Source: Carpediemonas membranifera BICM (Eukaryota; Protista; Fornicata). From it: DNA of 64,000 bases. The notes beneath the pieces are model-generated. The model did not search any database. It was not told the DNA's origin and worked only from the letters and a program-made list of their open reading frames with translations. The stretch is taken from contig JAHDYR010000012.1 in the NCBI GenBank assembly GCA_019828565.1, positions 1,233,680-1,297,679 on the forward strand, given 5' to 3'. Each line of letters begins with the position of its first letter. Within the stretch, counting starts at the first letter, position 1. The translations under genes and the position numbers were made by a program. Below are positions 42,331-64,000 of this stretch, piece by piece.

Positions 42331-42873
42331 GGGCGGGTGTCGACTCGATGCTTGGTTGTACGGTTACCTGTATCTCTTCACTAAACTTGCTGTCGGAATA
42401 TGCAGAGTCAACCGGGAGGCGGACAACGGTCGCCGACCATATTATTGCAAAGATTCGAAAACTTGTTCATCGTGGAGGTGAGTATATCATCTGGAATGGG
42501 AGTGCGGTCCTGGTGACCTCAGAAGTAACCGTACAACCAGATCACATTTTAGTGTCTGGTGGCATTGTAAAGCTAAGAGCTGACTGAGAGGGCGCCCTCT
42601 GATATCTCAGAAGCGAGATACAGGTGTCAAATGCCCCGCCCAATGGCCAAATTCAATGATGCTACCATGTTAGGGTATGAATACGTTTATTACAGCTCAT
42701 TAAGATTGATTTATTCCGTTTAGGCGTCTGTCTGCCGTGCTACGTAGGTCTGCGGCTCCGCGGTGATGGGCACCGCACGCCAGGAACGGCCTGGCCTATG
42801 ATGGGAACGGGCGGAGGGCACTGCAGTCCCGCCCAATCAATTGATGAATTGATTTGGCACATGCTGGAGAGAA

Positions 42874-43600
42874 ATGGCCGACAAGACGGCGGCCACCGCT
42901 GCCGAAGTTCAAAAACTCAAGGAAGAACTCGAAGAGGCCAAGAGGAGCCTGCAGCTCCTGAAGCAAAGCAGACGCAGAAGAAATGGGAGAAACCCAAAGG
43001 AGCCGCTCTCGAGGAAGAAGCCGACTTCCTGCAGGAGATCTACGAAGATATTCAGGAGGGAGAGGTTTCAGCGGAGGCCATCATGAACAGAATCTTCGTC
43101 CGACACAAGGTCCTCTACCTGAAGTCGAAGTTCGGATACGAAGCGGCCAGCGCCGTCACGAGGAAGCTCGACGCCATGCTACTGAAGACCCCGGAGATGG
43201 AGGAGGACGAGATCGAACAGGCCATAGCAGACAAGCTGGCAAGGATGCTGAACCTACAGATCAAGGAGGCCTTCAAGAGTGCCAAGGGTGTAAAGAGGCC
43301 GGGATATCCTCCGACTTGTACGACTCCATCTGGCCCCCTATGCCCAGACCGAACCCACATCACGTGCGACACCGTCACAGGGAGCACACTGCCCACCACA
43401 ACACCGCCAACGTTCCCCACCACACAGAAGAAGTGGAAGACCTGGGAGAGATTCGGAGCACCCCAGCAGATCGTATCCTGGATACGAGACGGCGTCCCGA
43501 TCCAGTACTCACCCCCTGTAAGACCCCCACCGATCCGCGACAACCCAGCGCTGGTGCCGCACATCGAGGAGCAGTCCACCAATGATTTCAGCAAAGTGGA
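42874..43600 (+). mobile_element. Probable DIRS-like retroelement relic (frameshifted gag plus start of RT)
   Basis: Coiled-coil gag-like ORF followed by WERFGAPQQIVSWIRDGVPIQYSPP, like the pre-RT segment of DIRS elements; the RT core is missing. Confidence 0.45.
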
Positions 43601-44242
43601 AACACTTCGATCATGGAAGGACAAGGACCAACAGGCCTGGCCTATATATAGGGCAGTGCCCCATGGAGCTCAGAAGGAGCGGCCTTGGCCTCCTGTCTGG
43701 ACATTCAAGGTGTGGTCTCTAGGACGAAGAAGGTTTTAATGAACAAGGCTAACTTCCACTGAGACTGCTGAGGACTATCTTCCTCTGCATCTTCCGCTGT
43801 CAATAAAATAGATACAAGAAATATATGGTCAGTGACCACACCGCCCCTCCATGCCGTCTCGGCATCAGAACCAGTAACTGGGATTATCTATTGGGGCAAA
43901 CACCCAACCTCAGCGAGGAATTACGAGTATTAGTATATCACAGGAGGGAACCAGCAACCACAGCGTGGGATTACTGCCAGCCGCATATGCGCGCGAACCC
44001 GTGAGGGAATTACGGCGTCCGGTAGGGTGACTGTAAGAAGTTATCTCGTTGCGCAGCGCTGCTATGTAAGTGGAGCTCCTAAGTAAATATCAGGTCTTAC
44101 CAAGGCCTAAAGTGGCTGTCAGACACCTACCAAACCTGTCTAATGTGAAAGGTAGCGTGGTGCAGGTTATGCCAACAAACTAGCGCGAAGATTGAATATT
44201 GCGCCTTATCCCTGTAATCGTTCTCTTCTTCCTATATCGAGC

Positions 44243-45580
44243 TCAATCTGAGCGTCTCTTCAGTCCTCTTGCATCCAAGAAGTCTTGGAACAAGTTATTC
44301 CCATCTAAGTTCACGAATGGCTCCCATGTTGCCTCTTCCTGTTCGTAACCGAGCCATTCAACCAGATAAGTCATGTCTTCAACATCACCGTCACCTGAAC
44401 ATTCCACAATCCGTTCAGGGATGTAATCTGCAGCAATCACCGTCAACCTCGCGATCGCTTCATCAGTCAAATTCCCGGCCTCAAACGGCAGAACTCGTGA
44501 CGCGTCCACACGGGACCGTACACCCGTCACCATGTCTTCCACCGTATAGGCCACCAGGCGGCTGTGCTGATGGTGATTCTCGACACGTCTCATCGGGCCC
44601 CGGAGGCCTGCTGCCAGCTTATCCGGGGGGCGCTCGGGATAGGCCACCAATACGAGAGGGGATGTGACCTCAGGCCGCGGGTCTGGTCCAGATTGCGAGA
44701 AAAGGACTGATGCCTTAATCCTCTCGGCCGCGATGTGTCGGCATGCTGCGGCGTCGGCCAGCCAGGTTTCCTGACCCTCGCTAATAACATCAGTCGCGCT
44801 CGGTATGAACACAACCTCCTCTGGACAACGAACAGACGAGAACCCGTAGACAATTTCAGCCGGCGTCAACCGAGTTGGTACTCTCGCGGTATTATTGAGC
44901 AACCACTGGGCGATCGGGATGCTATCGATCCATTCATTTGACGCGATGTGATAGCGACGGGCACGCAAGATCCGCTCGACCAAACTGTTGGCACGCTCGA
45001 CTATACCATTGGACTGAGGGTGATATGGGGTGGTATAGTGAGTCACAAATCCGATCCGATCTGCGAGATCCGAAAAGATTGAGTTGCGGAACTGTGTCCC
45101 ACCGTCAGACTGCAGGGTATTTGGAACCCCAAAGCGTAACACCCACGTGTTGACAAAAGCCCTTGCCGCCTCAGCTGCCGAGAGAGTCATCAAGGGGGCA
45201 AGCTCTACCCACCGACTGGACATGTCCACCATCACTAGTAGATACCGGTAGACACCCGTCTTCGTTCTCTCGGGGAACAGCTTCACCGTGTCGACGGCGA
45301 CCCGTTGGAAAGGGCGCTCCACTGCAGTATGCAACCCGGCATCCGACGTCCTCGGGGGTGCTTGCAGCACCTGGCATATCGGGCACCTCCCGATAACGCG
45401 TTGTACCATCGCCCGGTCTGCCGTGACCCCACGCTGCCTGAGCAGTTCCAATGTCGCGTGGGCTGAGAGGTGCGCCCCGGCGAAAGTGTGAGCGCTCTCG
45501 GTCGACTCCACGGTGGCGACGTCCTGGGCAATGGAGTTGACGTCTAGACGCGACAGGCCATCAGCGGCGCCGTGTGCCAT
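44243..45580 (-). pseudogene. 5'-truncated Ty3/gypsy integrase plus chromodomain
   Basis: ADGLSR, H..H/CPIC, VAVD, SDGGTQF, YHPQSNGIVER, YLVEWLGY..EEATWEP; purine tract after the stop. Confidence 0.9.
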
Positions 45581-45657
45581 TGTTGGCTTGCGCAGGTAGA
45601 TCTGTTTACATAAACTGCACTGGCTCTCACTTCCCTCCTCAAGGCGAAGCTAGCCAG

Positions 45658-46197
45658 CTAACGGCGGCCATTGCCCCGGAACTTCCGCTTGTAGCGTGCG
45701 AAGAGGGGCGTGAGACCTGGGTTGAGGCGTAGGTAGTCATCCAGGGCGGCGAGGCGGTCGTAATATGCGTTATACGGAATGTACGAGTCCTCGGAGTCTT
45801 CTAGGCCTTCCCAGTGGACGAGGAGCTCGAGGCGTCGGTTGCGCTCGCGGTGGCCGACGATGGCGGAGACTTGTTGTTCGTCTTGTTCGTATGCGGCGAT
45901 GCGCTCGAGTGTCTTGAGGTCTGCTGTGCCTGGGTCGAAGCGAATGAGGCGGTCCTGGTGGACGAGCAGCTCGGACTTGGTGACGAGGTCACGGAGGACG
46001 AATGTGTTGGGGCTCTTCCCTTCCCTGAGGAGTTGTAGCGGGTCGCGGACTGGAGGCAGAATCTTGGATGGGGCCTTGTGAGGATATCTCAGGAGCACTA
46101 GGCGTTCGAGTTTCCAGTCGAAGTTGTCCGCCGGTTGGGTTTGTGAGGCCTTGTGACGCTCGTATGCGGCGATCTTCGCGCGGGCTGCGTCGTGCAT
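45658..46197 (-). pseudogene. Integrase C-terminus plus chromodomain of another gypsy element
   Basis: SKILPPVRDP, VHQDRL, IVGHR...LVHWEGL..SEDSY; PPT GAGGAGGGAAG (45630-45640) followed by TG. Confidence 0.8.
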
Positions 46198-46627
46198 GGC
46201 CTGTACCCTTAGTTCCCGGCCTAGGGCATACCATTCCCTTTCACAGTCGGGGCCTCACGATGCTTGTCGGCATTGCTGCCGGTCTCCGCTTAGCTTCCTT
46301 CCTCGCCGCATGGCAGGACCATTACCTAACGAGCTTAGGTGGGAGCGACAGTGGTTGTTGCCCCTCCCAAGGCTGGAGTTACAGCCTGCCGGACAGGCAG
46401 GGCTCTTTTTACCTTTTGGTAACCCTGCCCCCGGCCCCTGTGGGGCACAGGGGTTTGTTGAAAAAGAATGTGTTGCATTTTTGCTCCCGCCGGAATGGTT
46501 CGCCGGTGTCCATTTGGACTTTAAGGCCCTACTAGTCACAGCCTGGCCATACATGCTGGTTCATATATACACTTTTAGCTCAGACTTATATCACACTACC
46601 CTCTGCACCTCTTACTTATGATTGTTT

Positions 46628-48034
46628 CTACTCTCCTTCCTTCTCCTCGCCTCTCTTCCTTCTCAGGTCAGACCTGAAGTTATCCATCTTGGCTGCTAGG
46701 GTGAAGCTGAGGGCTTCGTTGGTTGCCGAGAGTCGGGCCGCGCGGCTGAGTAAGTCCTCGTTCTCTTCGGTTAGAGACGAGCACTTCTCCGTTGTCTCCC
46801 TGAGGTCCTTCCGCATCTCGTCCAACGCAGCTTGGGCTGCTCTCCGGGCTTCCCGTTCTTCCTCCAGCTCCTGGCTTTTGGCCTTGAGCTCGTTGATGGT
46901 TCTGGCTGCAGCTTCTTCCAGCTGTTGTCTGACCTCTGCTTCTCGCCGGGCCATGGCTTGGTCCAGCAGGGCCGCTATGCCTCTGCCCAGGTCGGTGTCC
47001 TCCTGTCGTGCTCTTTTTGGGCTGCAGGTCCTCTTGGTCCACCTGTCTGACCTGGCGGGTCTTGGCTGATGGGTTGGGGGGTATGGGGGGGCACAGCTCT
47101 TAGTTGGAGGGGGCCCGGGCTCTGTTCGCTCTGTCCTGCTACTTTGCGGTTGTTCAGTGACAATTTGCCCGCGTGGAGGGCCATATAGGCCCCCTATGCC
47201 GCCATTCGGCAGGTAGACCTCCGTCCTCCTGTGGAGCATCTTGGCGAGTTCAGTAGCCCTTCGTCTCACCTTTGTTCGAAGCGCCTGCTTCCTCTCGGTC
47301 CTCAGTCTGTTCTTGGCGTTAGTGCTGGCGCCTTCCGGGAAAACACAGTTCAGCGTGTCCCATGGCTTCCCCCCTTTTGGGTGTTCCACGCCTGAGCCCG
47401 CCAGGGCGAGTTTGCCTATCCAGGAGGCGCTCCTCAAGGTGCCCACTCGCCTCTTCCCTCTTTCTGCTGGTTCATCCGTGATACCCCAGTCCCGGGGGAG
47501 GAACGAGGGGAGGAAGTTGATGGAGCCTGTCTCCGGGTCGACACACATGTTGGCCAGGAGTTCTCGATCGTCGGCTGGGACCTCCGTGAAGTAGTTGAAG
47601 ATCTTCTTCCTGGCTTCTCTGCCCATGTGGCCTCCAGCTATGTCGAATTTGTGGACGGGCATCAAAGACGCCGCTTGGGATAGGGTCATCGTTTTGGTGT
47701 CGCTGACGTCTAGAGTAAGCATCTTTTCCGCGTCTATTTCCGTGGGCTCCCCCCTCAGGTTCGCCCAAGGGAAACCGTCTTGGACAGCGCGGCGGCGCCC
47801 GTTCCACTCCGAGTGGATTTCCAGGAGGATGGGTCGCGCTGGTTCGCCTACTCTCGCGAGCGATTCTGGGTTTCCGATGATCACGGCTGTTCCTTCCAGG
47901 GCTCTGGTGATACCCTTTCCGGAGCTGAAATCGTTTTCCTCCCAGTTGGTCATGATAATCTGGCCCCGTTTGGGGTTCTTGGTGCCAAAGAGGTTGACTT
48001 GTTGGGACAATGGGGTTAGGCGACCGGCCGCCAC
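46628..48034 (-). CDS. Hypothetical protein, possibly a degenerate SF1-helicase C-terminal domain plus coiled coil
   Basis: ITRA...VIIGN and an upstream in-frame SPY; no ATG at the 5' end, so possibly a frameshifted continuation of 48087-48947. Confidence 0.45.
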   Translation of the reverse strand: MAAGRLTPLSQQVNLFGTKNPKRGQIIMTNWEENDFSSGKGITRALEGTAVIIGNPESLARVGEPARPILLEIHSEWNGRRRAVQDGFPWANLRGEPTEIDAEKMLTLDVSDTKTMTLSQAASLMPVHKFDIAGGHMGREARKKIFNYFTEVPADDRELLANMCVDPETGSINFLPSFLPRDWGITDEPAERGKRRVGTLRSASWIGKLALAGSGVEHPKGGKPWDTLNCVFPEGASTNAKNRLRTERKQALRTKVRRRATELAKMLHRRTEVYLPNGGIGGLYGPPRGQIVTEQPQSSRTERTEPGPPPTKSCAPPYPPTHQPRPARSDRWTKRTCSPKRARQEDTDLGRGIAALLDQAMARREAEVRQQLEEAAARTINELKAKSQELEEEREARRAAQAALDEMRKDLRETTEKCSSLTEENEDLLSRAARLSATNEALSFTLAAKMDNFRSDLRRKRGEEKEGE

Positions 48035-48086
48035 GGTGCCGAGGCCGTGTCTGGCGTTGACTTTGGTCGCCAGGTCCTTGTATTCA

Positions 48087-48947
48087 TCATGGTACGGCGA
48101 CTCCCCTGCCCATGAGCATGCTTCCTAGGGCTGTGAGGTGGGCTTCTACCTGCCCCCAGTCCCAGCCTGGGTTGTCTCTCATCCAGAACGCTGTTGCTAG
48201 TCTGGCGTAGAATATGGAGACATCTGCTAGGGCGCAGTGGCAGTGGTGGGGTGCGTGCTTGTGATAGGGGCACACCAATTTTGCCTCCGGGCGCTGTTGG
48301 TACCTTCTGGTCCAGGTCCGGCCCAGTTCGGACTGGGGTCGGGAGGGGAGGCCGGTGAGGCTCTTCTCCCCACTATTGGGGTAGAACCAGGTCAGCGTGT
48401 CGAGGATGTTGGGGAAGATCGTGTTGAGGTCAGTTTCATCCATGAGGCGTAAGCTTAGCCAGGTGCGGAGGTTCCCGTCTGGGACGAACTTCTCACTGGT
48501 CAGGATGCTTCTCTCAGCCTCGACTCCCTTAGCCACGATGTGGACGTGGGTCTTCTGTGGCCCCGAGTCGTCTTCCAGTCTCTTCAGCTCTGTAGCCATC
48601 TCGGTGCACCATCGCTTGGCGTGGGGGAAGTCTGCTTCGTATCCCTTGGGGGCTTTGCCCGTGGTGACGACGACAAACGTAGCTGGTGGGCAGCCATGGA
48701 TGTAGTGCGTGGCCCACAGACATTGGTCCAGGGCATCCACTGTGATGTCTTCCCCAAGCATCCCGTGCATGTAGTAGAGGATTTGCTCGTTAGCTGGGTC
48801 GAAAATCAGTGCCGCCCCTTCGCAAATGATGGCCTCGTCTCCTTGGTTGGATCTGGCTCTTCCTTCCTCAAAGTCCACCATAGCGATCAACTGCCTGGTG
48901 GTGTTGGCTCGTTGGGTGATATTGGAACGAGGCGGGCTAGCTCCCAT
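48087..48947 (-). CDS. DEDDh exonuclease of Maelstrom/arenavirus-NP-like type
   Basis: VDFE, ICE, YIHG, AKGVEAE, CPYH and HCALAD in the expected order. Confidence 0.6.
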   Translation of the reverse strand: MGASPPRSNITQRANTTRQLIAMVDFEEGRARSNQGDEAIICEGAALIFDPANEQILYYMHGMLGEDITVDALDQCLWATHYIHGCPPATFVVVTTGKAPKGYEADFPHAKRWCTEMATELKRLEDDSGPQKTHVHIVAKGVEAERSILTSEKFVPDGNLRTWLSLRLMDETDLNTIFPNILDTLTWFYPNSGEKSLTGLPSRPQSELGRTWTRRYQQRPEAKLVCPYHKHAPHHCHCALADVSIFYARLATAFWMRDNPGWDWGQVEAHLTALGSMLMGRGVAVP

Positions 48948-49026: not shown

Positions 49027-49391
49027 TAGCATTTCGACTCGGTAAGAAAAAAAATAAATCAACAACGAGCTGTATTCATAATCTATAAATGAGGTTGAAT
49101 ACATGCCTACACATGAGGACTACTCATGCGTAGTTTTGAGCTTTAAATCCTGCTAGAAAAAAGTAACATAGGGACAATTATTCCTTGGGAGTTCAGACTC
49201 AAAAATCGGGCTGGGGGGAGGAAATGGTCCATAAGTACGCCTTATGGGTCGCTTCCTCCTCTCTGCCCTTTTTTAATCGCAAAATCGATTTGCCAGATTT
49301 GACACATGTTCGAGGTGAGTCTTAGATTACTCAAAATGGCCTCCTGATTCAGCAGATAGACTCAAAATTTCACAATTCGTACTCAAAACCA

Positions 49392-49468
49392 ATTTCAACA
49401 GACGTCTGTTGCAAAATCTGCCAAAAACGCACTTTAAAGTCATTTTTGCAACAGACGTCTGTGGAAAT
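49392..49468. repeat. 25-bp inverted repeat (1 mismatch) with palindromic arms
   Basis: ATTTCAACAGACGTCTGTTGCAAAA / TTTTGCAACAGACGTCTGTGGAAAT. Confidence 0.9.
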
Positions 49469-50720
49469 GGTCTTTAAGCTCTCCGCTGCCGATTTGACGC
49501 AACTACACAAGACTAACTACAGTAATACGTACATTGCCGACATTAGCGGGGTCAAAACTGTCGTCAAGGTCGATAACTGTATGACACTTCGCCTGACACA
49601 CGAAAAGACGATACTTCAGGCAATGAAAAGCCCATTTATTGTTACAATCGTCGATGTGGGCTTTGTTGACAGCGATCAAGCGTTTGCCACTCGCTTTGTT
49701 GACCATATGTCGTGGCGAGACGTTCTGGCACTACCAGTACCGGATCAATGTCGCTACTTGCGGCACTTACTGTTAGCTCTCAGCCATGTGCATGAGAATG
49801 GATTCATCCACGGCGACATCAAGCCCGACAACTACCTTTTCAACCGAGAAGACGGTGGATTACTCATTGACTTCGGCTCTGCCATCAAAATAGAGGCTCC
49901 TACTGGGATTAACAGGTATATGGGACAAGACATGAGAGGGACACCTGGTTTTATCCCCCCCGAGCTTCGTGCCGACGAACTCAGTCGGAAATCGAAGCAT
50001 TGTACAGTAGCTATGCGGGAACCACAGAATTTGAACCCCTTCCAGGCTTCCAGGAACACCACAACCAGAAACACCAACATGCACACAGTTGATGCGGCAT
50101 ACGACATCTTTTCCTGCGGCGTTATCGTCCTCATGATGGCATTGCGACTGGATAAGTCTCCATTTCGATCTGTGAGAGTGGATGGTGGCAAGCCAAGTAA
50201 CCCAGACGAGCATATTGGCGCTCTATATAACATGGCGTACTTCTACGGCCGCGAAATCACGATACACAGCAAGAAGAAGAATGCAGCCCGTGGTTTGATG
50301 ATCAATCCGACTCTCTGCACGAGAGGAAGCCCTCCGACACAGTATAGGAGCCTTTATGACCTTGCAATGGGGATGCTCAGCTATAATCCGGAGGATAGAC
50401 CAACAGCTTTGATGTGCGCTGAACATCTCAACGATATCGCCGCCCTAGCAGCAACGTTCGCATCAACACCACTGATGATCAACGACCAGGTGACAATCTC
50501 TCAGGAAACGCTCGCTGCCGCCAAACTCACCGTTGAAGCACTTCGAGAAACCCGATTTGCTGGCCGATGCATTGCATGTGGCATGCCGGTTCACGATAAT
50601 CGAACAATAACTTGCAAGACACACCACCAAGATTACAGAAGCATCATGAACCCCCACACAAAGAGAAGAGGACGAGTTTGGAGGGTTCATCGTGATCTAT
50701 CATTGATTATTGATATGTAA
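49467..50720 (+). CDS. Cdc7-like Ser/Thr protein kinase with C-terminal Cys/His finger
   Basis: VVK, YLRHLLLALSHVH, HGDIKPDNYLF, DFG, RGTPGFIPPE, DIFSCG, RPTA; CIAC...CKTHH tail. Confidence 0.85.
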   Translation: MVFKLSAADLTQLHKTNYSNTYIADISGVKTVVKVDNCMTLRLTHEKTILQAMKSPFIVTIVDVGFVDSDQAFATRFVDHMSWRDVLALPVPDQCRYLRHLLLALSHVHENGFIHGDIKPDNYLFNREDGGLLIDFGSAIKIEAPTGINRYMGQDMRGTPGFIPPELRADELSRKSKHCTVAMREPQNLNPFQASRNTTTRNTNMHTVDAAYDIFSCGVIVLMMALRLDKSPFRSVRVDGGKPSNPDEHIGALYNMAYFYGREITIHSKKKNAARGLMINPTLCTRGSPPTQYRSLYDLAMGMLSYNPEDRPTALMCAEHLNDIAALAATFASTPLMINDQVTISQETLAAAKLTVEALRETRFAGRCIACGMPVHDNRTITCKTHHQDYRSIMNPHTKRRGRVWRVHRDLSLIIDM

Positions 50721-50834
50721 CCGCCCAGTATCGAATCACCTCACTACCATGGGATGATCGCATTCACCTTCAAAGAAAGAGATGAGGCCGCATACTCGAC
50801 CAGATATAAAGGAGATATGCTGCAGCCTTGAAAA

Positions 50835-50854
50835 GAAAGAAAGAAAGAAAGAAA
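50835..50854 (+). repeat. (GAAA)5 microsatellite
   Basis: Read directly from the sequence. Confidence 0.85.
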
Positions 50855-51167
50855 TTTATGGTGCTTGGATTCTGACCCCGGACTGAGCTTGTTTCCCGTG
50901 CTGCAGCCTTGCGCTGGCTTTATAGACAATACCCAGTTGTTTACACTAAAACCGAAAAATCAGTCCAGTAGACGCTCGAATCGAACTGGAGTGGGGTGGC
51001 TGTGATACAGTGTTCGTTCCTGTAGTACCCAGGCAGAAGACCCGACCGGACGATATGGCCTGGAACTCTACCGGCAAAAAGCAGCTGGCGGCCGCTGAGG
51101 AATATGTGGAAGGCGCTTCCAGAATGATCTTTACACTACTTTCTTTGCTTCTATCTTGTACTTACTG

Positions 51168-51845
51168 TTAATCACTCTCATCATCTTTTTGTCTACTTGT
51201 GGATGACGGAGCGCCTTCCTGTATTTGCGCTTTTCTTTTGATACCCTCTGGGAGACTGACAAGTTCCGCATGGTCGTCCTGGAGCAGAATAAAGTGGGTA
51301 ATGCCATGTCTGGAACAGAACACCTGGAAATTCTCACAACGATCAGCAGCTGAGTCGCCAGAAGGGTACAAACCCCAAAACTGGTGACCATGTGTGAACA
51401 ATATCACTGTAGAATTATTACCGTTGTTGCACACCATGATGACATTACGCATGTAGATCATGGAAAACTCTCGCACAGCATCATCGGTAAGCCAGCCCAT
51501 CTTGGAAAACAGTTCTGCCTTAGCGGAATCCTCCGTCAGAGCCGTCCGCTTCACCCGGCTTTCCACCAGCTCGGCACGCAAAGCCATGGCTGCCTCAAGA
51601 TCTGTTCTGTGGGTCAGGGTGGTCATATCCCGGAAATGGCCGTCCCTAATCATGCAACAGCAGTGCGCAACACAGCTGCCATCACGGTGTGTCGAGTATT
51701 TCCTCCATGACTTCAACCCATTCACAATTTCCTCAACGAAGGACTGTGGCTGACCGCTGGTGCCGATTGGAATCTCTTTCTTCTCAATCATATTGTTGAT
51801 GTGAGACTCAATGGCCACAGATGACTCGTGTTCAGACTTGATCAA
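51168..51845 (-). CDS. Hypothetical protein, possibly the C-terminal continuation of the upstream protease-like gene
   Basis: 225-codon frame that stays open into the end of the upstream ORF. Confidence 0.45.
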   Translation of the reverse strand: MIKSEHESSVAIESHINNMIEKKEIPIGTSGQPQSFVEEIVNGLKSWRKYSTHRDGSCVAHCCCMIRDGHFRDMTTLTHRTDLEAAMALRAELVESRVKRTALTEDSAKAELFSKMGWLTDDAVREFSMIYMRNVIMVCNNGNNSTVILFTHGHQFWGLYPSGDSAADRCENFQVFCSRHGITHFILLQDDHAELVSLPEGIKRKAQIQEGAPSSTSRQKDDESD

Positions 51846-52847
51846 GAGCAGAGAGCGAAAGTCGACGATCTTAGCAGTGGAATCGAAGTTCGGGTACGCA
51901 GGCCGGTAACCTTGTTAAGCAAAGGATAACAACGCGGCGGGAGTCTTGCGTCTTCCTCCGATACGATCTTCGCTTTTGCACAACCGTCAGGTCTTGCGAT
52001 AATGACTCTTCGCTTCATGTACGAGAGCTTGGACATCCAGAACCAGAATTGCGCGATCTCATGGAGGTGATCTGGCTGAGTCATGATTCTGATGAGCCAC
52101 GTGGCGTCATGGGCGGCAAGTTCGACGGCGGGTAGCTCATCTGGTGTCAAAAGCACCACACACCGTTGCATTGTGAACTTGAACTTGCCAGAATACAACT
52201 GAAAGATCGGCCGTGGGTCACGGGCGGAAGACTGGCAGGCGGCAACATACACACCCATGATTCGGGCGAACTTGCAGACATGACTCTCATAATTCTTCAG
52301 AATTGCCTCGATGAAGTCGAAGGCAGTTGTCCAGATGGCTGGTATCGTGCGGGCATCGACCACAAACCGACCATCAGAGTCCGAGTGACCAGTGATAATG
52401 AAAAAAAGTCTCATAGTCACCATACAGCTTGCCGAATTCCTTGATTTTCGCCTCAAAATCGTCCTCGTTCTCGAACTGGGCCGTCTCGATAACCGTATAC
52501 TCGCTATGCATTGCCGCAAAGATCTGACGAATGCGTTCTGCGTGCCCTCCAATGGAGACAGATTCATCAATCGAAAACTGCCTGCTATCTCCAGCAACGA
52601 ACCCATAGGTTGGCTCGAACACGATGAGGACACGTGTATTCTTCAGCGCCAGTGCAGTACGCGTGCACTTGTGACGTCGGGATGGCGAGGGAAAACCGAC
52701 GTTGCGTGTTTCGCTACTGATGTCCCCACAGACACATTCAAACAGCTTTGATCCATCCAGATATCGATTTCTCCACCCCATTGCATTGAAAAATGTCTGA
52801 TCGTCGTTCATGACGCCAATGCCAAATTGAGGGTGAGAAAATGGCAT
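51842..52847 (-). CDS. Caspase/CHAT-fold cysteine protease-like protein, split by a 1-nt homopolymer indel at 52401-52407
   Basis: Joined product reads YETFFIITGHS...VYVAACQS, a His/Cys dyad after hydrophobic strands. Confidence 0.45.
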
Positions 52848-52908
52848 CGCACTTTAAAGCAGCTTTATGTGAGAAATGTATTGCATATAATTCTGCATTC
52901 AGAAGACG

Positions 52909-53766
52909 ATGGCTAGAACAAAGCAAACGGCTCGCCGGCCTACGCAAGGTGGAAAGGCGCCTCGCAAGCAGTTAGCAGCGATAGCTGCGCGGAGAGCGAA
53001 TACTTCGTCGTACCGCACCTACAAGCCGTTGTCTCAGGCCGCGTTGGAGAATTGCACGGCAGTCCTGCAAAAGGCTGATGCTGATATCCAAGAAACTATT
53101 CTGTCGTGCATCAAGAAGACGGAGGCGCACAACTTCAAGCAGATGGTCAAGAATTCAACACGAGCTGGTTTCCGACTTGCATTCAACACTGAGTCCGAGT
53201 CTGTCCACATGAACCCATCGAGGAAGGACGAGGTGGCAGCGCGGGCAGAAGCTGCTTACCAATCAGCGCTGCATGCCTTCCGCAGCGTTGACCCTGAGAC
53301 TGCTGCGACAGAAGATATGAAGACACTGCTTGACACCTTAGCGGTTGCTCTTGACGCAACGCCAGATGTGCCACATGCTCGCCTGGATCCTGAAGAACAG
53401 CGTCGGTTCCTGAAGCTGAAGGATACGAAGAAATTCTCCAAGTACTGCCTTCCTCGCAGTGACGAGAAGTTTTTCTCGACCAATCTTCGCGCTGCCTTGC
53501 GCGAACACCTGGCGAAGGTGTTTCCAAACCTCCCTTGGAACAAGATTGTCTCCTGCTTCTCCCCTGAAGCGATCAATGCTGATTTCTTTATCCTGTCCAC
53601 GAGCAATGCCACCTACGACGAAGCTTGCCTGACAATGCCGTCTGATGAGAGAAAGAAGCTTCGCAACCATCTTTCCATGACTGAAGAACGGCAGATTGCT
53701 CGTCAAGAGATGGAGGTTGAGATTTACCAGTTTTTAAGAGAGCTCGGTATGTTCTCTACAGTGTAA
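52909..53766 (+). CDS. Histone H3 N-terminal tail fused to an unknown non-histone domain
   Basis: [29 protein letters not shown] start; no H3 histone-fold motifs follow; intact 285-aa ORF. Confidence 0.85.
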   Translation: [285 protein letters not shown]

Positions 53767-53971
53767 AAGATGCAATTGTTGACCATTGACTCGATCAGCG
53801 CGCCTCTAAACCCCACTATTCGAAGGCGTCTCTGCGGGCTGAAGAGACATAAAGGTTAAAAACAGTTTAAGGAACTCGTCCAACGTCTTCGCATTGTGCG
53901 TCATGGCCACCTTGTCCTTCTTCGTCAACCTCGATTTGGTACCCTTTCTCTTCACAGTCGTCTTCTTCTTC

Positions 53972-54703
53972 TTAGAAGGCTCCCAGCTCCCATTGGCGCA
54001 TGCTTTTTCTTAGCTTCTTCTGCTCTAATCTGTACTTCTCCTCCTCCGTCATGTCTGCTTCCTTTTTCTTTGCCTTCGCCTTCTTCTTCGACTTCATTAC
54101 ATCTAACTTCTTCGCCTTCTCTGCATCCTCCTGGACCACGCGAGAAATTGAGTGCTTCACGTCCTTCGGTACATCACGATTCCTCGCATGCTTAACCACG
54201 ACAAAGACATTATCGTCAGTGCCGCCACCTTCAAGGATGACCTTGTCCTTTGGGATCTTGCTGGTGGCAACCAAGAAGCAGATCGGCTTCTTATCCACCT
54301 TGAATAGGGCAAACCTGCAGTTGCCAGCAGCCGAATGATGGCAAAGCTTGTTGACGCATGCTTCATCAGGAGTCATGAGGTGCAGCTGTGACGATAGCTG
54401 AATCCGAGAAGGCTGATCGCTAAGAACACCCTTGGCAATCCCGAGCACTTCTCCCTCATCAACATCGCCAGCCGTGACCAAACCATACATCATGTCATCG
54501 CCCTTTGACACCATGCATGTGCTGCACTTCAGAGAAATGAGCGATTGGCCGTCAAGCTCGACAATTTGGTCATCATCGAAAGGCAAGGCGTCTATCTTCA
54601 TCGCGGCTTCGCCCATGTCCGCCCAATTTGCATAGACACGACGCGCAAGCTCTTCCGGAAAGCAATCGCAGCAAAAGTTGACAGTTCCACTTTCTTGCTG
54701 CAT
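53972..54703 (-). CDS. Divergent SET-domain protein with Lys-rich tail
   Basis: YGLVTAGDVDEGEVLGIAKG, KLCHHSAAGNC (cf. RFINHSCxPN), FLVATSKI; ELxxDY is absent; may extend to ~53806 across a homopolymer indel. Confidence 0.6.
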   Translation of the reverse strand: MQQESGTVNFCCDCFPEELARRVYANWADMGEAAMKIDALPFDDDQIVELDGQSLISLKCSTCMVSKGDDMMYGLVTAGDVDEGEVLGIAKGVLSDQPSRIQLSSQLHLMTPDEACVNKLCHHSAAGNCRFALFKVDKKPICFLVATSKIPKDKVILEGGGTDDNVFVVVKHARNRDVPKDVKHSISRVVQEDAEKAKKLDVMKSKKKAKAKKKEADMTEEEKYRLEQKKLRKSMRQWELGAF

Positions 54704-54899
54704 TCTACGCAGTTTATACCAGCAGTTTATACGCAGCAATGACACAGCACCAAGAGCGTGGCACACAACCCTTCAATGACCCATGTAAGGTTGGGTGGGT
54801 CTTATGTCAGGCTGTTTCTTTTCAATCATTTCAATCATATCCTGCACAGACTTCGTTGATGAAGAAGTTCTGCTATGACGAAGCCGGCTTGTCGCGACG

Positions 54900-55720
54900 A
54901 GAACTGGGCCATAGAACTGAAATCGGCATCCGAATATCGCGGCACGCATGGGTATTTACCCCCAGAAATGTTCAAAGTGTGTTCGTGTTCGGTCATTCCG
55001 CCGTCAACGAGCGCCATACGAGACCTCCAAGCATACGCGCATGACTGCATCGGCTCTTCCCGCCTGTTCTTCATGTCGTCACACCTGCCTCCGACATTTA
55101 CTCGTGCGGTGTAGTCATTGCTCTTTTACGGTCTCCCCAAGTCCCCCTTTGCCGCGAAGGTGACTGACATGGCGCAGATCGACAACAAGAAGAAGAATAA
55201 GATGCTGAAGCTTGGTAGCTTGCTGAACTGGTGCCACTTCTATGGTGGGCAGTTGCAGTTGTCACGTAAGACACTCGAACCGCTCAGAGATTGTCTCAAC
55301 TTCGTGAACGTGAACTCTGCACTACCGATTCGCGGCACAACGCCACCCACTTGCCTCGGAATGTACGACCTGGCAATGCAGATGCTCCACTTCGACCCAA
55401 CGAAGCGTCCCACTGCTGCCGAATGTCTTGACAAGCTCAAGGTCATCATGCGCGTGCATGAATGCGTCGCCAAGCCGAGTCCGCTTCTGTTAGATGACAC
55501 TGAACAGGTCTTACTCTCTGTAGATCAGCGAAAGAGAATGGTCGACTGCTGCCAACTGGGGTCCTGGAGGAAAAAGTTTAGAGATGCGATTCGAAAGGGT
55601 CGTAGCATTGAACTCGAAACCATGAGTCCTAAGAACACCGGCGCATGCCCAACACTCACCCCCGGTGGGGCCTGGCCGTGGTTTGAACATATACCGACAC
55701 ATAACTGGGTAAATACGTAA
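54900..55720 (+). pseudogene. Truncated, frameshifted paralog of the 49467 kinase
   Basis: RGTHGYLPPE, SDIYSCGV (different frame), KSPF, FYG, YDLAMQML.FDP.KRPTA. Confidence 0.8.
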
Positions 55721-56953
55721 ATGTTGTGCGAAAATTGCGTCTTGTTCTGCACAGAGCGATGACGAAACTAAAAACGGAACAAGAAGAGGCCTGAAGATTT
55801 AACTGCCCGGCGGTGCAGGTTCGTCAAGTGGCCGGAGATGCCGCTTCCAGTAAGGTGTATGCCGTACAGCTCGCCGTATCCATCTCCGTGCCCGTCTCCA
55901 TCCCCCCACTCCGCCTTCAACGCCAGCCCCCGCCACGCCTGTTGTAAGTCCGCCTCCATCTCCTGTCCGCAGTTCACCACCGAGTCTCGAAATCGAATCA
56001 CCTCACTACCATGATTCCCCGCAATACCATGATGTATGTGATGACCATTAAACGATCTCCTTCTATACAATGACTTCTGAAGCCGTCCGACCAACGGCAC
56101 AGAACGGTTTATAGCATGCATATGATCCATTCTGGTGCCTTTATCCTCTATAACCAACATCAGTCCATCAAAATGAATCTTGCAACAGAATACTCATCCA
56201 CACGCATCGAGAACGAAAAAGAAGCATATAACCAACATCAACAACCTAATAGAAGGCTGCATGCAAGCGTAGAGCTCTCCTAGTCGATTCTTCAATTTAT
56301 CAAGCATCAATCTCCACGTCAGGATGAAACTGTGCGCCCAAAAGCTCAGAGATGCCGTTATAGATGATATAACGACGTCTCTGAGCTTTTCAGCGATGTC
56401 AGTTTCTGGCCACGTCCAAGTTCGGCTCTGCGAAAATAACAGTGCATTGCACTATAAGTCATACATTTGGAATACAGCAATGCACTGTTATTTTCGCCAA
56501 AACCACGCTGACCTACCATTGTCCATGGGCTTGACGGGGGTGATCTTCTCGGCTTGGATTTGGCTGAAACTTGGTATATGTGTAGTATTTGATATGTTAG
56601 GACGGATCCAAGATTTTTTTACATATCGTTCGAGTCTATTTACCGAGATATACGTAAAGCAAAATTAGGGTTGAGTCTATTCTGGCTGAAAAGCGGTATG
56701 GTGGGTTCTCTGACTGTCTGAACACGGCTCCAGAAGTTTTACGTGATGAATTGGCATATTTATATTGCTTTGCGTAAACAGAAAATTTTGACAGTACCTA
56801 CAATCAACTACCTGCATATACATGCTATAAACATGCTTAAAAATGCCTTCAGTCGTACGTGCTATATACTAAAGCTCTTCCTGCATCTTATTTCGAAAGA
56901 ACAAAATATTCACTCTGAAAATAACACTGCATTGCTGTGAAATTTTGGAAAAG

Positions 56954-58571
56954 ATGCTAGATATCACTATTCTACGCAGCTGGATTCGTGAGCATCATGA
57001 GAAGACCGTTAGGATTGCTTCTGCTGCACCTGGTCAAGAGCGTAAGGCTATTCGAGCAGATAAGAGTATGTTCGAGAGATGGTTCGCACTCCGGACGAAT
57101 AAGAGCCGCTTGGAGCACCTCAAGGAGCACAAAGTGATAACGAAGACAGCCCTGAGATGCGCGCTGGTCGATAACATCGTCATTGACGAGATTCGTGATG
57201 TGTTTGGTCTCGCTGGCCGAGTTTCACTAATGGATCTCATCAACAAGGCTTCCCTTCCCGAGCTCATGGCCATTAGTGACGACCTTGCCCGGCCCGAGCT
57301 GTCTAAGGTTCCTGCAGGCTTGTTTATGGAGGATGATCAGGTTGAAATCGTGCGGAAGCAGTTTTTTTGACCACTACACCGGATCAGCGATCACCTTTGA
57401 GGATAACCGCGAGGCTGTCATGCCGTCACATCGTGGCTCTATTCATCTAGAAGGAACAGGCCGTCTCTTTCTTCCAGATCAAGTCAACCTGATCCTTCGC
57501 GCTCTCTTCGTCGCCCCTGAGGGCACTGTCGAGGCCCGCCGCGTGCATTCCCCCTACGAGGACATTCTTTCTGGTTGCAAGAATGATCCGGGAAGCGATG
57601 TGACATCAGCCCAGCTTGAGCGGTTGCGTCGAGATGTTGCCAAGGCAGCCGCCGAAGCTATTCAGGCAAGGAATGACCGCGAGGAAGCCAAACACTCGCT
57701 TGAACTCGTTACTGCATCCTATGCGCAAGATACAGGGCATGCATATGTGACACCACCCGCCAGCGACGCCGTGGAATTTTCCGACACTGACGAGGACGAG
57801 TCCGATGGCCACGCTGAACCGGCCGCCATGCAGGGTGACGGCGTTCCTTTGCCCCAGACTGATCAAGACGTCGAAGTAGAGTCCGATGTGGACGACACAG
57901 ACACCGTTGGTCTCCAGACGGTTTACGATGTTGATGCAGAGGCCGATCATGACGTCCGCGAGCCAGTGTCCCTGCTTAATCACAGCTTAGCACAGCTAGA
58001 CGACACCATTGCAGGCCTTGATGATGTACCCGAGTCTGTGCGCTTGTTGGAGCAGTACGAGCCCTTGATGAAACGGCTTGCTGAGGAGAGGGAGGCGAGG
58101 GAGGCGCTTGAACAGGCTAACAGAGATTCTGAGGAGTCCCAGAAGAGACTAGAAGCTGAGTTAGGTCAGCAGAAGGGCGAGGATCAGGCGATCCATCAGT
58201 TTACTCAAGCAGAGTTGGCACGCGCGAGTGAGGCTGGGCTTGAAGCACTCGCCGATGAACTCGAAGACAACTGGGCGGAGCTTATCAGGCGCGCCGAGGA
58301 GGCAACAATCGAGCTTGACCGCTACGTTGCTCTCGCTGCCTTGATGGAACTGTTCCAGAGGAACAATGTGGCTGGAGCTTTGTGGACTCGGATCAATAGC
58401 ACCATGATGAGGTACGGGGGCCAGAAGTTCATAACGGTCCCACCCCTAGACCTCGGTCTTACGCCTGAGATGAAGGCTATCATCGCACAGCACTCTCGAG
58501 AGAAGAAGACAAAAGCTCGTGTAACACAGGGAGAGAAGCTGGAGTTTCCCCTGGAAGGGCGTTCATGCTAG
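56954..58571 (+). CDS. Hypothetical acidic/coiled-coil protein split at T7 (57362-57368)
   Basis: Removing one T fuses the 141-aa and 431-aa ORFs. Confidence 0.6.
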
Positions 58572-58639
58572 TGGAGCAGTTGAAGTAAATGGGCACGGCG
58601 ACAGGGCGGAACAAGCAACCGCGAAATAGAGATATCAGG

Positions 58640-59005
58640 TCATCCCTGACATTGTATGGCGAGAACTGTTCTCAGTCTCCGCTTTGGGAGCTCTAAGATC
58701 AGTCTGAGATGAGTTACAGATGTCCACACGGTATTCGTCAAACTGAGCACTTCTCCAAATGAAATGTACTCGTGCTGCTTTAATGAGTCTTTGTTGTAGT
58801 CATAAACATAAGCAGCACCAATTGCCTTCATTTTGCCTGTTTCTGCCATTATTGATCTGCATATTGATTCCAAGCGACTATCTAAACAAAAGCGGCTTTG
58901 AATTTCTTCAACAATGCCAATTCCGCGCATAATGTCCGATGAAATGCTGACCACTTGTGATGCAGCTCCCTCAGGCGTTTCTAGATGTGGTTTCATTGGT
59001 TTCAT
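58640..59005 (-). CDS. Hypothetical protein
   Basis: Short ATG ORF divergent from the PHD gene. Confidence 0.35.
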   Translation of the reverse strand: MKPMKPHLETPEGAASQVVSISSDIMRGIGIVEEIQSRFCLDSRLESICRSIMAETGKMKAIGAAYVYDYNKDSLKQHEYISFGEVLSLTNTVWTSVTHLRLILELPKRRLRTVLAIQCQG

Positions 59006-59059
59006 TCTCAGTGACACCCTTTACATAATTCATTTTACGTTATAAACATATCGAACGAA

Positions 59060-60295
59060 ATGAAGCAAGTGCCGAAAAAGAAGTCTCCTGGAACCTATCG
59101 CGCGTTCACTGGTCATGATCTTACTACAAATCTTTCAAAGATCACTTTTTCGGGCCATGTTGACATGCTTCTTTGTCATTGTCGATGATATCGACGTAGA
59201 CAGTGGCCTCTCACTGGGAATGCCCAAAGACTCCGTGTTATCGGCCTATAACACTGTCGTGTCGAACTTGCTTGTCCCTGTGTACGGTGGTTTTGTTGCT
59301 TTGAAGAAGAAGAACTTCAACGAGAAGGGGTTGCTAGACTGGGCGAGAGATTTGGGTTATAAGCTCGGTTACACCAAGACTAAGCCGATCATCTACCACC
59401 AGTTGACGCCGAAAGAGAAGCCTAGCGCCAAGGATCTGTCAGTTTTTCATGAAGGAGATGGCGAATGTCCTCAGACTAGCCAACGCCCCTGATATGGACA
59501 TCGAGAACCTGAAGAAGATGAAGTTCATCTTCCCGACAGGTCTACTTCTTGATGCCAGGCAAAGATATCACAAGCAAAGCGTGCAGACCAAAAGGCTGAG
59601 GGGAGATGAACCCAGCTTTCCTGCGTCTCCAATCAAATCTGAGTCACTGCTCAACGATAACAGCCTTCTTGGATCCATTAAGACTGAAAGAGATGCGAAG
59701 ACTCCCGCTCGTGACTCTTCTCTGACAAATCCTTCGGTCCAACACCAAATGATCCAGGATCTTCACCAATACGTTGTTGGTGAACGAAAGTTCGATATGG
59801 CACATCAGCAAGAGCTGAAGCGTCCTACTGCTGATGACAGTGATGACAGTGATGTCAGCATTGCTGAGAAGACAGGTCCGCTGATTTCTTTCGATATGTT
59901 TATGCGTCAACTAGCATTTTTTGCTGCGGGCATTGCACTTCCCCGGATTGGTTGGGCAATCCGGAGAACGAAAACTGACTTCGCCCAGTGCGGATCATGC
60001 AACCGCTACTACCATGGGAGGTGCGTGAGGTGGCTCAGCAATGGGAAGAAGGCCATTACCAATTTCACGTGTCCGGATTGTGCTGCTGCTTCTGAATGCA
60101 CCCGCTGCAAGGCTAAGATCAAATCGTCAAAGGGAAGGGACTCTTTCTTCTGCAACATGTGCAAATCTTGGTATTGCAAGCCATGCGGTGTGGCCATGTG
60201 GGAGACCTCGATTGATGGAACCGTTGCCAGGTTCTTATTTTTGCCAGGTCTGCAAGGAAAGCCTCCTGGCACTGAATCCGAGTCTGGCATTGTGA
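59060..60295 (+). CDS. Tandem PHD-like zinc-finger protein, split by several homopolymer indels
   Basis: CGHC...QCGSCNRYYHGRC...FTCPDC then CTRC...CNMCKSWYCKPC...FCQVC, assembled across frames. Confidence 0.65.
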
Positions 60296-60643
60296 GAGTA
60301 AAGGAAGGAAGAAGCGATCCAGCCTTTATGTAATTTAATCACTTGCGGCTTATCTACATACAGCGGCCGGCCGGGGTTAGCCACTCACTGGGGTCAACAT
60401 CATCCCACGGCAGCAAATTCGCTGCAGTAGATTGACTGTCGTCCCCGCTGGGGAAGGTGGGGAAGGTGTGGAGACGTTTCTATTACGCGTTTATTGGGCA
60501 ATGTGGGTCAAACAACAATTTCTGCTGGTATTGGTTTCTCATACAACGGCATCCATGGAAGAGTTGGTGTCCACCGCAGAATATTGTTGTACGCGTACCA
60601 CCGTTTGTTGAGTGGGTTGAACAGCCAGTAAGTGCTGGGGGAC

Positions 60644-62002
60644 TTATCCATCAGTGTCACTGCATATTTTTGATGCCTCAAAGCGCGCAATAGCAGGAAA
60701 CCCATGCGATTGTCTCGAAACCACAGTTTGTCTGCTCCCGCCGTCTACTCGCACATAGATAAGGACGTTGTTGGGCAATAGCACAAACTTGGAAAGTGGG
60801 TACAACCTATACACCTCATGTTCGCTGCAAGGAATCGGGTTTGGGTCCAAAAATAGAGATCGGACAATGTTGGGGATGAGTCGGGATCTACCGATGAGAT
60901 AGCAATCATTGCCAGATCTAACGATCATAAACCTAGACTGTGCAACAAAGATGATTGCGTCGATCCAGACAGGTGTCCTCCTGAACCCCGGATGGGCGAC
61001 ATCCGTCATGTCATCAGCGGGAATATGACCAGTGGTATTACCGGTGAAGAACTGGGCTGGGACTATATTCTTTTGTCTTGGATGCCCGGACCGTTCCGGA
61101 CAAGATAACAAGTCCAGGCACGGCCCTGATCCCTCCAAGATTGACGGGAAGTTTCACCTTAGCAAACGAAGAGAATCGGTGAGTGAGGGCCACATCGTGT
61201 CCAAAACCAAGCCATCATATTAACGCCATACTCCTGAGAAGGCGCTGTAACGAGCACCCCGTGCATTGTGTGCAACATGATGTAAGTGTTGCAGTGGCAG
61301 TCAAGAACAAATCGATGCCTGCACCACAGATGCATCTTGGCAAGCTTCTCAGCTATGGCTGCGGGGAAAAACCGCCTGATGGACAGATGTAACACGAGCG
61401 AACCACAAGTTGCCAATGTAGAACGCCTTGCTGGTTGAGAAGAAGAAACACTTGCCATCAGACCAGAACCGCATGATCCGGTGACGGAATGAACGATGAT
61501 TGTCGTGGAAGACAAACCCACAATAATGCACGAGCTCTGATGCATCATAGCTCTTGATGACAGTCCGATCTCTCTTAGCAACACTATGTGAAAACATGAA
61601 CTTCCTGCACATGAACCAGAGAGCGCTCGAGTCACCATCGGTCACCGTCCTCAGTATGGCCCACAACGTCCCTTGTATAAGCGTGTGAAGACGGTCGGGC
61701 AGCGATTCGCCTTCGCGAAGCTGAACATCCATGCTTAGCTGTGGATGGCTTCGCAGTTTGATGACGCGAGAGAGAATCCGGGCAACCTGCGATGCCTGAT
61801 CCGAATTCTCAAGCTCTTGCGCGTGAAGACAAGCAAGCTGAAGCATGTCATCAAACGTCTCCAGGTCTTGAAAGATGTGATAGAAATGCGAACGCGCAGG
61901 GAACATAAAGAAGACCCTTGTGGCTTGTTCTAAATAGCCCGGCAGGTTGTTGGGCAAAGTTTTTGCACAGGACACAAGAGTTCCAGTAAAGGTCACAAAC
62001 AC
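60644..62002 (-). pseudogene. Hypothetical gene broken into successive +1-shifted ORFs
   Basis: ORFs 61349-62002, 61159-61638 and 60644-61138 can be joined at short homopolymers. Confidence 0.4.
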
Positions 62003-62163
62003 TGAGCGACAATTGTCTGTGATTAGAATCAGTCATGTTCCCCCTATAGCTGTTCTTAAACTGCACTGCCAAAATGAGGTGGAGAAAATGGCATCGACAT
62101 TTTTTTACGTAGGACCAATATAAACAGCGAAAAAAACGTAAAGGAAACAAAAACTGGGAGGAC

Positions 62164-62704
62164 ATGCATATCTCCACACAAGCTACTTTGGTCATCTGGA
62201 GAATGACACCTTACGGTAACATTCTAGCACCATCAAGCGTTTCCGCCGTCAATGTCATTCTAGCAAACGTTTACACCTCGATCCAAGGACACCACGCTAA
62301 TGGCATGGATCGACGGTTCCGTCAATGCGATAAGGATTCGCGTTCGTTGTTCAAGGCTGTCTTGCTATCTCTAACTGATGGTGATATTGACAAGAGCATT
62401 CTTGATCCTGTCTTTGTTTCCTTGCTTGATGGTAATACGGATCGTTTTTCGACGTAACATATGTGCTACTGTCAGAGAGTACACACCAACATGGTCCCAT
62501 GCCTTCTCACCTGCGTCGGACGAGAGAGATAGCTTGTGCGAGGACAACCACCTGCTACTCGAGAAGATTGAGAACACCGAGCATGCATTTCAGTTCGCAA
62601 TGGCGCTCAAGCGGATCACTGAAGGTGTCAATGTCGTTGATGATGAGGTTACTGTCTTTAACGCGATCGCCAAAAAGGCTGGGTATCCAGACCATGAAGT
62701 TTGA
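62164..62704 (+). CDS. Hypothetical protein split at T5 (62445-62449)
   Basis: Removing one T joins the 97-aa and 108-aa ORFs. Confidence 0.4.
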
Positions 62705-63544
62705 TGTCTCACATTATGCTCTCAAAGACCTTGGGTGTGATATTAGGAACGTGTTCGGAGTGAAAGAAGCCATGAAAGATCACGAGGCAGATTTTTTTCG
62801 AGAGTCTTGTACCAGACGAGATACACTGTTCGCACAACACGTTTCGTTATGATCAAAACAACCAGAAGTTCCCTCTCGAACATACGACACGTTTCCCAAT
62901 TGCAGCTGACGCAATAGGCTCCTTGCCGGTTCCGGTCAACAACTACTTACATGATGGAACGCACATTACTATCTTCTTCAACAGCGAAGATGAACGAGAT
63001 CAATGTGTCTCCATGCTTTTCCCACCTCAACCCCACCAAGTTGAAAAAGCGATCGGTGGGCCTTTGTCAAGTCGGTTAAGTATAACATTTCCAGCCGTAT
63101 TGCACGAGGCATTCAGTCACCACAGTATCTCGAGACAGCCAGAGATATTTGGTATGATACAACGACACATGTTAGCAGAGAAGCGCGTGTTGAAGCTAGC
63201 TACATTCCAGTTGACATTCTCATCTGGTTTGGAGTGCATGGCGAGGGACTACGACCGCTGTCAAATTCAGGCTGATTGACATGACAGGAGAGGTCTTTCC
63301 GCAGAGAGTGACATCACCATTCAGACTGCTTGAGTACCAGGGAAAGGAGGATCTTTTGCCAACATACTTTGAGTATATTCAGTCTAACGTGGAAGAGGCA
63401 ATCCAGAAGTCATTCCAAGTGCGAGAAACTGGAAGGTGGGCAAGAATCAACAGAGTATTGCTGATTGGTGACCACCCTGCCATGTCGACAGTTGTGGGCT
63501 CGCTGCAAGGGAGGGCATTATCCATCGCCTTTCCAATCGAATAG
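62694..63544 (+). mobile_element. Possible DDE transposase relic (CACTA/Mirage/Plavaka-like)
   Basis: YFEYIQSNVEEAIQKSFQV...VLLIGDHPAMSTVVG resembles the D-x-P-A catalytic segment; multiple frameshifts. Confidence 0.35.
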
Positions 63545-64000
63545 TAAGCGAAACATGGGTTGGATGCCGTTTGGCGCCACGTTCCGGACCACACTTCAGC
63601 ACGTCCTCCAAGCCAAAAGAAGGTAGTATTGCTGAATCTACATCGGGTATTCCAGATCCTGCCGCGCACTGGGGCAGCTTTCTCCTGGCGACTGACCGAA
63701 GGCGTTCGTTGGAATACAGAAGAAGAAGGTTACGTCAAACTCTCTTTGAGGGATCGTCGATTGCTCCTGACAGTGTGTTTCTTATCCCCCAATCATGCAC
63801 TGTTGCCATCATTTCATGGGTCAGGTGGCCCTAATGGCGGGAATGTTCAAACCGCGGAATGACGGCTCACGAGAAGAGAACGCTCAGTGGGGACGTTATC
63901 TGCAATCTATCCAAGATTTTCAAACCGCCAGATCATTACGCTGGGTGTAATGAGCATATGTTAAGGCCACAGATTCCGGTAAGCCAACCGTAGCGAAGCG

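Follow-up and report, generated by a model that had tools for sequence, protein, structure and literature searches.

An H3-like N-terminal tail on an apparently non-histone protein encoded in a duplicated, mobile-element-like block of Carpediemonas membranifera

Introduction

Histone mimics described so far are mostly short viral motifs, and the anti-silencing factors of transposons have so far been DNA-binding or enzymatic proteins. The viral examples include influenza NS1 with its ARSK motif, adenovirus protein VII, and bracovirus CpBV-H4, and the same account describes the ARKT host mimics of G9a and GLP, in which an H3-like sequence in a non-histone protein serves complex assembly (PMC6028506). 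In plants, H3.15 and H3.10 are true nucleosomal histones linked to de-repression, with a tail that cannot be methylated at K27 (reported as shown for H3.15; PMC10426802). Among mobile elements, the VANC proteins of VANDAL transposons are reported as element-encoded chromatin factors thought to evade silencing (PMC5735166, PMC10398659), and transposon fusions with PHD, SET, and chromo domains are also reported (10.1101/2021.11.30.470311). In the metamonad Trichomonas, H3K9me3 and H3K27me3 are reported to mark transposon genes (PMC11875748); E(z) is reportedly missing in every metamonad studied (10.1101/2021.07.16.452543), and across eukaryotes marks and their writers are described as correlating poorly (10.1101/2021.11.30.470311).

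Here we describe a gene of the protist Carpediemonas membranifera, referred to as the tail gene, lying in a window of 64,000 nucleotides (the whole stretch of DNA that was analysed). As in the viral mimics, so far as the cited account describes them, a parasite-encoded H3- or H4-like tail would be carried on, or exist as, a non-nucleosomal protein for which an engagement of host chromatin is proposed. Unlike them, the tail gene has a whole 28-residue N-terminal tail rather than a motif of 4–5 residues, has both K9 and K27 changed, and lies in a duplicated chromosomal block of a protist rather than in a known virus. G9a and GLP are reported to mimic K9 and to recruit HP1, whereas the tail gene lacks K9 and keeps K4. 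A tail without a methylatable K27 is shared with the plant variants, whereas the nucleosomal character of these contrasts with a protein that has no detectable histone fold. The likeness to VANC and to the transposon fusions is one of description, no homology to the tail gene having been seen, and the reported fusions involve reader or writer domains rather than a mimic of the tail substrate. The part of the literature that was covered gave no account of the tail gene, the block, or a transposon-borne H3 tail.

Results

The tail gene opens with a copy of the H3 tail

The first 30 residues encoded by the open reading frame (ORF) of the tail gene (Table 1) contain a copy of the histone H3 tail, which is real. 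A stop codon sits 6 codons 5′ of the ATG; the tail is at the true N terminus, and this N terminus scored 45.8 bits against a profile made from 186 H3 N termini, far beyond chance. Solved H3 chains matched the gene with E values of 3e-6 to 7e-5, residues ~1–40 being aligned. The copy is identical to canonical H3 at 22 of 28 positions, the six changes being K9R, S10P, T22A, K23I, K27R, and S28A, with R2, T3, K4, T6, R8, T11, K14, and K18 all kept. Alignment to the solved chains places the inserted Gln after T11, and K14 and K18 are consequently one residue further from the N terminus. Beyond residue 28 the likeness to H3 is not significant; in an ungapped register K36 of H3 is replaced by Tyr and K37-P38 is retained. 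The reading frame runs uninterrupted through 285 codons, and its codon bias is of the coding type.

Table 1. Positions of the block, its genes, and the parts of the tail gene within the window
Feature	Position	Strand	Description
Compositionally foreign block	49400..64000	.	GC 0.47–0.52; ORF GC3 0.53–0.62 (9 measured)
Inverted repeat with internal palindromes	49382..49478	.	Near left edge of block; possible terminal or promoter structure
Ser/Thr kinase 1	49467..50720	+	Best PDB match Cdc7, narrowly ahead of others
33-nt motif	52817..52849	+	60 nt upstream of tail gene; possible shared promoter
Tail gene	52909..53766	+	285-aa ORF; H3-like tail and helical domain of unlabelled family; GC3 0.58
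H3 tail copy	52912..52998	+	H3 positions 1–28 plus one inserted Gln
K27-equivalent codon	52993..52996	+	AGA (52993–52995); second copy one base shorter, reads Lys
Region after tail	53029..53763	+	245 aa, predicted all-helical; only homologue is second copy; no histone fold detected
SET-like neighbour	53972..54703	-	Convergent to tail gene; weak, degenerate
Second kinase	54926..55720	+	Broken; paralog of kinase 1
PHD-finger gene	59449..60333	+	Best-matching PHDs: BPTF, ALFIN-like, PHF8
Long coding gene	62164..64000	+	Candidate DDE transposase; single-base indel breaks, runs off window; second copy P0135

The remainder of the protein has no recognizable histone fold

A structure model of the tail-gene protein was all-helical after the tail, at low confidence (pLDDT 47.5). 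Residues 41–285 matched no Pfam family, Histone included. A profile of 140 H3 cores, which is of low diversity, gave 0.2 bits, a score reached by 52% of 500 shuffles, and HHalign against the H3 core gave a probability of 0.1% with the low-diversity profile. A resemblance of residues 41–150 to the H3 core, seen by eye, was rejected as no better than shuffles. Fold searches with the low-confidence model returned generic helical bundles, with no histone among the best structural matches.

The only homologue of the C-terminal region among 5,277 candidates of 156–499 aa was a second copy of the gene. Proteins longer than 499 aa were covered by a search of 1.84 billion representatives alone, whose 11 matches were the second copy, nine tail-only H3 matches, and P0013. 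Neither the ESM Atlas (best 0.78) nor the PDB sequence search yielded a homologue of the C-terminal region, and in the 80 loci kept of 385 metagenome loci, together with 41 viral loci, the likeness to the tail-gene protein was confined to the tail. P0013 was considered as an independent K9Q/S10P tail fusion and dropped when a cluster mate proved to have a histone fold; P0137, of the same cluster, is an H3 of 275 aa whose K9Q/S10P tail is duplicated and whose histone fold follows a long insert.

Since the histone-fold test failed, the tail-gene protein is, on sequence grounds, not an H3 variant. By its predicted anatomy, a histone-like motif on a non-histone protein, it would be a histone mimic, and the public record of the second copy, named 'histone H3/CENP-A', is a frameshifted part of the non-histone tail gene. 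A preliminary description of the locus had placed an H3-like tail at the true N terminus and no histone fold after it, and both points are borne out by the upstream stop, the profile scores, Pfam, and HHalign. Its reading of the letters was right for R2, T3, K4, T6, T11, K14, and K18 as kept residues and for K9R, S10P, K23I, and S28A as substitutions; it missed the inserted Gln, and its K27R falls on an indel site where the other copy has Lys.

The block is present twice in the genome

The second copy of the tail gene (P0004; KAG9389682.1, C. membranifera) is the sole relative of the non-tail part among the 1.84 billion representatives, and P0135 (KAG9389687.1), the second copy of the gene at 62 kb, is the sole relative found for a fragment at 63 kb. 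Both lie, five accession numbers apart, on one other contig of 727,793 nt, the window's SRP54 being on a contig of 1,872,840 nt. The block is therefore present twice in C. membranifera over at least 9 kb; dispersal amounts to two genes 9 kb apart that recur on one other contig, and only these two copies are known.

Where the copies were compared, exact blocks cover 126 of 127 and 399 of 400 residues with no amino-acid substitution, which suggests a recent duplication. They differ by 10 indels of 1–2 bases, mostly in homopolymer runs. The published C. membranifera assembly is reported to have used nanopore long reads (PMC8516963), and the indels are probably unpolished long-read errors in a young repeat, in which case the block may be intact. 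Under a codon model the 62-kb gene follows the frame path of the other copy, suggesting that the copy in the window carries most of these breaks. Both copies share K9R, S10P, and the Gln insertion; as the second copy is identical in its substitutions, it cannot show whether K9R is conserved.

At the K27-equivalent codon the two copies part, and past it the second copy runs in the other frame for 25 codons. The codon model favours the window frame at this site by 5.8 bits raw, a value at the 40th percentile of 74 true-frame segments and attained by 2.7% of the 73 off-frame segments, and a hand calibration of codon use gives ~7:1 for the window frame over residues 29–54. The frame of the other copy is slightly more H3-like, its top score being matched or exceeded by 1.25% of the 400 null segments and by 5% of 300 shuffles, with a mean score that is not significant. 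A compensating indel pair is hidden in the PHD gene of the window. K27R is probably real and not an assembly error.

Comparison with other H3 tails

Four of the six substitutions fall on K9, S10, K27, and S28 (hypergeometric 7e-4 over 28 positions and 3e-3 over positions 9–28, with the four sites picked post hoc). Changes at all four together occurred in none of the 26 viral and none of the 12 metagenomic distinct H3 tails, which were fetched with a pattern fixing positions 1–7, so that their invariance at K4 was forced. Among the 26 divergent viral tails, K27 was changed in 8, S28 in 19, and K9 in 4, with K9 and K27 both changed in one. K9R was the commonest K9 change among the tails compared, and a test restricted to lysines, three of six being lost including K9 and K27, gave p = 0.2. 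Since K27 and S28 are often changed and the lysine test is weak, the selective signal rests mainly on the K9R-S10P pair.

Most of the 120 matches listed of 177 were K9R H3s with a normal fold, a proportion biased by the query, and none of those listed combined R9-P10 with the insertion; no fold-bearing H3 with the same tail was present among the matches listed. Because the proteins of the species are in the searched collection, this is indirect evidence that the host H3s differ from the tail of the tail gene. Five H3 genes and CenpA are listed for the species under locus numbers outside the range of the block (PMC8516963, supplements 6 and 8), and C. membranifera is also reported to have divergent H3 variants.

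H3 tails on non-histone ORFs were found in 3 of 124 ORFs from 121 loci, and tail capture is therefore not unique to this gene. In L040:13–900 (+), a canonical H3 tail is in frame with a VWA domain, a fusion that an intron could explain. On a giant-virus MAG contig, L093:4525–4959 (+) carries a canonical tail to position 25 on an acidic and basic ORF of 145 aa that has no Pfam family. The third, L119:4450–4956 (+), on a 130-kb IMG/VR contig, joins an H3-like tail with K9 changed to Pro to ankyrin repeats, and a true H3 gene follows ~550 nt downstream. Many viral H3 genes (L081–L121) have position 27 changed, to Met in L103, L111, and L112, and insertions after position 27 occur in L095, L097, L099, L100, L102, and L104.

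Composition and genes of the block

The left two thirds of the window holds ordinary eukaryotic genes, with GC3 values of 0.73–0.89 for the seven host genes measured, and the block runs from ~49.4 kb through the end of the window. Repeat-like ORFs at 42798–48947, between host genes and block, are intermediate (GC3 0.63–0.71, three measured), and immediately to the left of the block come retrotransposon integrases with chromodomains. Two chromodomain-bearing integrase remnants of Ty3 type and a complete Ty3-type element occupy 44243–46197 and 6410–10828; the complete element has identical 90-nt terminal repeats, and 141-nt inverted arms at 5937 and 12263 flank it. Elsewhere in the window, identical inverted copies of 1,566 nt (618–2183 and 19954–21519) each contain a 456-aa ORF without a named family, and a 505-aa ORF at 24780–26297 (-) with a signal-peptide-like start resembles, by eye, a MACPF-type protein.

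Two neighbours of the tail gene are of chromatin type, in line with the preliminary description, which had referred to PHD and SET proteins nearby. The PHD finger best matched BPTF (E = 1.6e-5), followed by ALFIN-like, PHF8, and EBS/SHL, whose PHD fingers are K4me3 readers. Its first Cys pair is in another frame, between two homopolymer runs, and Tyr stands at the position of the cage Trp. The SET-like protein gave weak matches to Pfam SET (E = 0.098) and, as best chains, to SETD8 (E = 0.18); HH replaces its NH motif, the aligned C-terminal motif has no tyrosine, and judged by these motifs it looks catalytically incomplete. Both kinases precede the same 22-nt motif (50730 and 55992), and the Cdc7 match of the first is of note as the species is reported to be without parts of the replication machinery. 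The 33-nt motif ahead of the tail gene recurs (88%; blastn E = 5e-4) at 62064–62096, upstream of the candidate transposase. Hairpins and inverted repeats cluster at 56335–56497 and 56917–56938, within a central AT-rich gap of the block. Several further ORFs of the block have no family name, and many of its genes are broken in the window.

The gene at 62–64 kb has two Asp-centred stretches that we take to recall the DDE core of RAG1, Transib, and Chapaev(-CACTA-like) transposons, and a 92-aa piece of it is predicted to fold as strand-strand-helix-strand (pLDDT 65.7). Searches of this gene as a transposase against Pfam, PDB sequences, the Atlas, Foldseek, and VIA gave no named family and did not confirm the likeness; a candidate relative, L122, was set aside as a chance match. 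Neither kinase 1 nor the 63-kb fragment yielded a viral relative, and the scanned ORFs of the block, which is cut by the window end, include no capsid, packaging ATPase, or PolB of the kind that would mark an endogenous giant virus or a Polinton. The block is likely to be a large cut-and-paste transposon whose cargo includes chromatin genes; foreign DNA duplicated simply as a segment, or an endogenous virus, is also possible.

Discussion

The reading that we put at somewhat under an even chance is that the tail gene encodes an element-borne mimic of an H3K4-type tail, which would recruit activating readers and offer silencing enzymes no site at K9 or K27. Removal of Met would expose a free Ala1 for PHD fingers, as in established H3 chemistry, and host enzymes would then modify K4, K14, and K18 of the tail. 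Either the BPTF-type PHD of the block itself or PHD and acetyl readers of the host may bind the modified tail, the changes at K9/S10 and K27/S28 would leave silencing marks no site, and the helical part may tether the protein to the DNA or proteins of the element. As a result the element would stay transcribed in a host that silences repeats. Such a mimic is favoured because R2-T3-K4 together with K14 and K18 is kept at an intact N terminus, because PHD and SET-like genes accompany it in a block that looks foreign and is duplicated, and because the tail gene shares its 33-nt upstream motif with the candidate transposase. The concentration of substitutions on K9, S10, K27, and S28, the marking of transposon genes by H3K9me3 and H3K27me3 reported in Trichomonas, the chromodomain retrotransposons beside the block, and the listing of the host H3 and CenpA genes at other loci also speak for it.

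It is weakened because K27R may be an assembly error and K36 is lost too, because K27, S28, and K9 also vary in viral H3 tails, and because the SET-like protein looks incomplete and the cage Trp of the PHD is Tyr. The unsilenceable, activating tail of the preliminary description accordingly stands in part. The tail itself, the missing fold, the K4-reader-type PHD, and a mobile-element-like setting that could supply a motive agree with it, but K27R falls on an indel site, K27 and S28 are variable elsewhere, the lysine-only test gave no significance, an active-mark site has been lost with K36, and E(z)/PRC2 is reported absent in Metamonada. For its alternative, an inhibitor of K9/K27 methyltransferases, no support was found.

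A less probable but still serious explanation is that capture of the tail supplied a ready-made basic peptide for nuclear import or for sticking to chromatin, the changes at K9 and K27 being drift without any reading of marks. H3 tails carry an import signal, and K27 and S28, at the margin of the captured segment, vary frequently. The prevalence of K9R among K9 changes, the lysine-only result, and the loss of K36 would also fit drift, as would the occurrence of H3 tails with an intact K9 on unrelated ORFs (the VWA fusion L040, and L093). Against this, S10P beside K9R together with a change of all four ARKS sites was seen in 0 of 38 distinct tails, and the block also codes for PHD and SET-like proteins.

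The tail could instead act as a soluble decoy that jams host writers or readers of H3, either as a dead-end substrate of K9/K27 methyltransferases or by occupying K4 readers, with a genome-wide loosening of silencing as the result. In each AR-K-S motif the AR is retained and the K and S are gone, and viral mimics are reported to compete with H3 for partners (PMC6028506), but the dominant inhibitors reported are K-to-M rather than K-to-R (PMC5030085). Pro at position 10 and the insertion would probably disturb recognition by the enzymes, and the catalytic subunit of PRC2 is reported absent in the lineage (10.1101/2021.07.16.452543); we consider a decoy improbable.

Quite improbable, too, is that the tail gene rides along in the repeat, silent or dead, as a chimera without present function. 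The window copy of the block has many broken genes, other mobile genes of the species are reported as unexpressed (PMC8516963), and the exact tail-gene protein is absent from the searched protein collection. The 285 open codons and their coding-type bias speak against it, and the breaks differ between otherwise identical copies and fall mostly in homopolymers, as long-read errors do. Moreover, the tail retains 22 of 28 H3 residues even though its third codon positions resemble the block and not the host, a pattern that may reflect purifying selection.

That the gene is a highly degenerate, CenH3-like variant of unrecognizable fold that enters nucleosomes would agree with the helical prediction after the tail, the 'histone H3/CENP-A' name of the second copy, the long-tailed true H3 to which the similar-looking P0013 fragment belonged, and the divergent H3 variants reported in the species, but it is very unlikely given chance-level H3-core and HHalign scores, no Pfam Histone match, no histone among the best structural matches of the low-confidence model, and published CenpA and H3 lists that name other loci (PMC8516963).

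The element-borne mimic can be extended to a bolder picture, which we regard as doubtful: a giant transposon with its own chromatin kit, comprising an edited H3-tail mimic, a K4-reader PHD, a pseudo-SET protein, and kinases, in which the mimic would mark the element with a signal of active chromatin that cannot be silenced, a form of counter-silencing by histone mimicry. If the substitutions are drift, the gene is a curiosity of domain capture. If the mimic reading is true, a complete H3 tail on a non-histone protein carried by a transposon, beside a matching PHD, would represent a new route of counter-silencing, and its altered sites would provide a natural read-out of the marks that silence repeats in a lineage reported to be without the catalytic subunit of PRC2.
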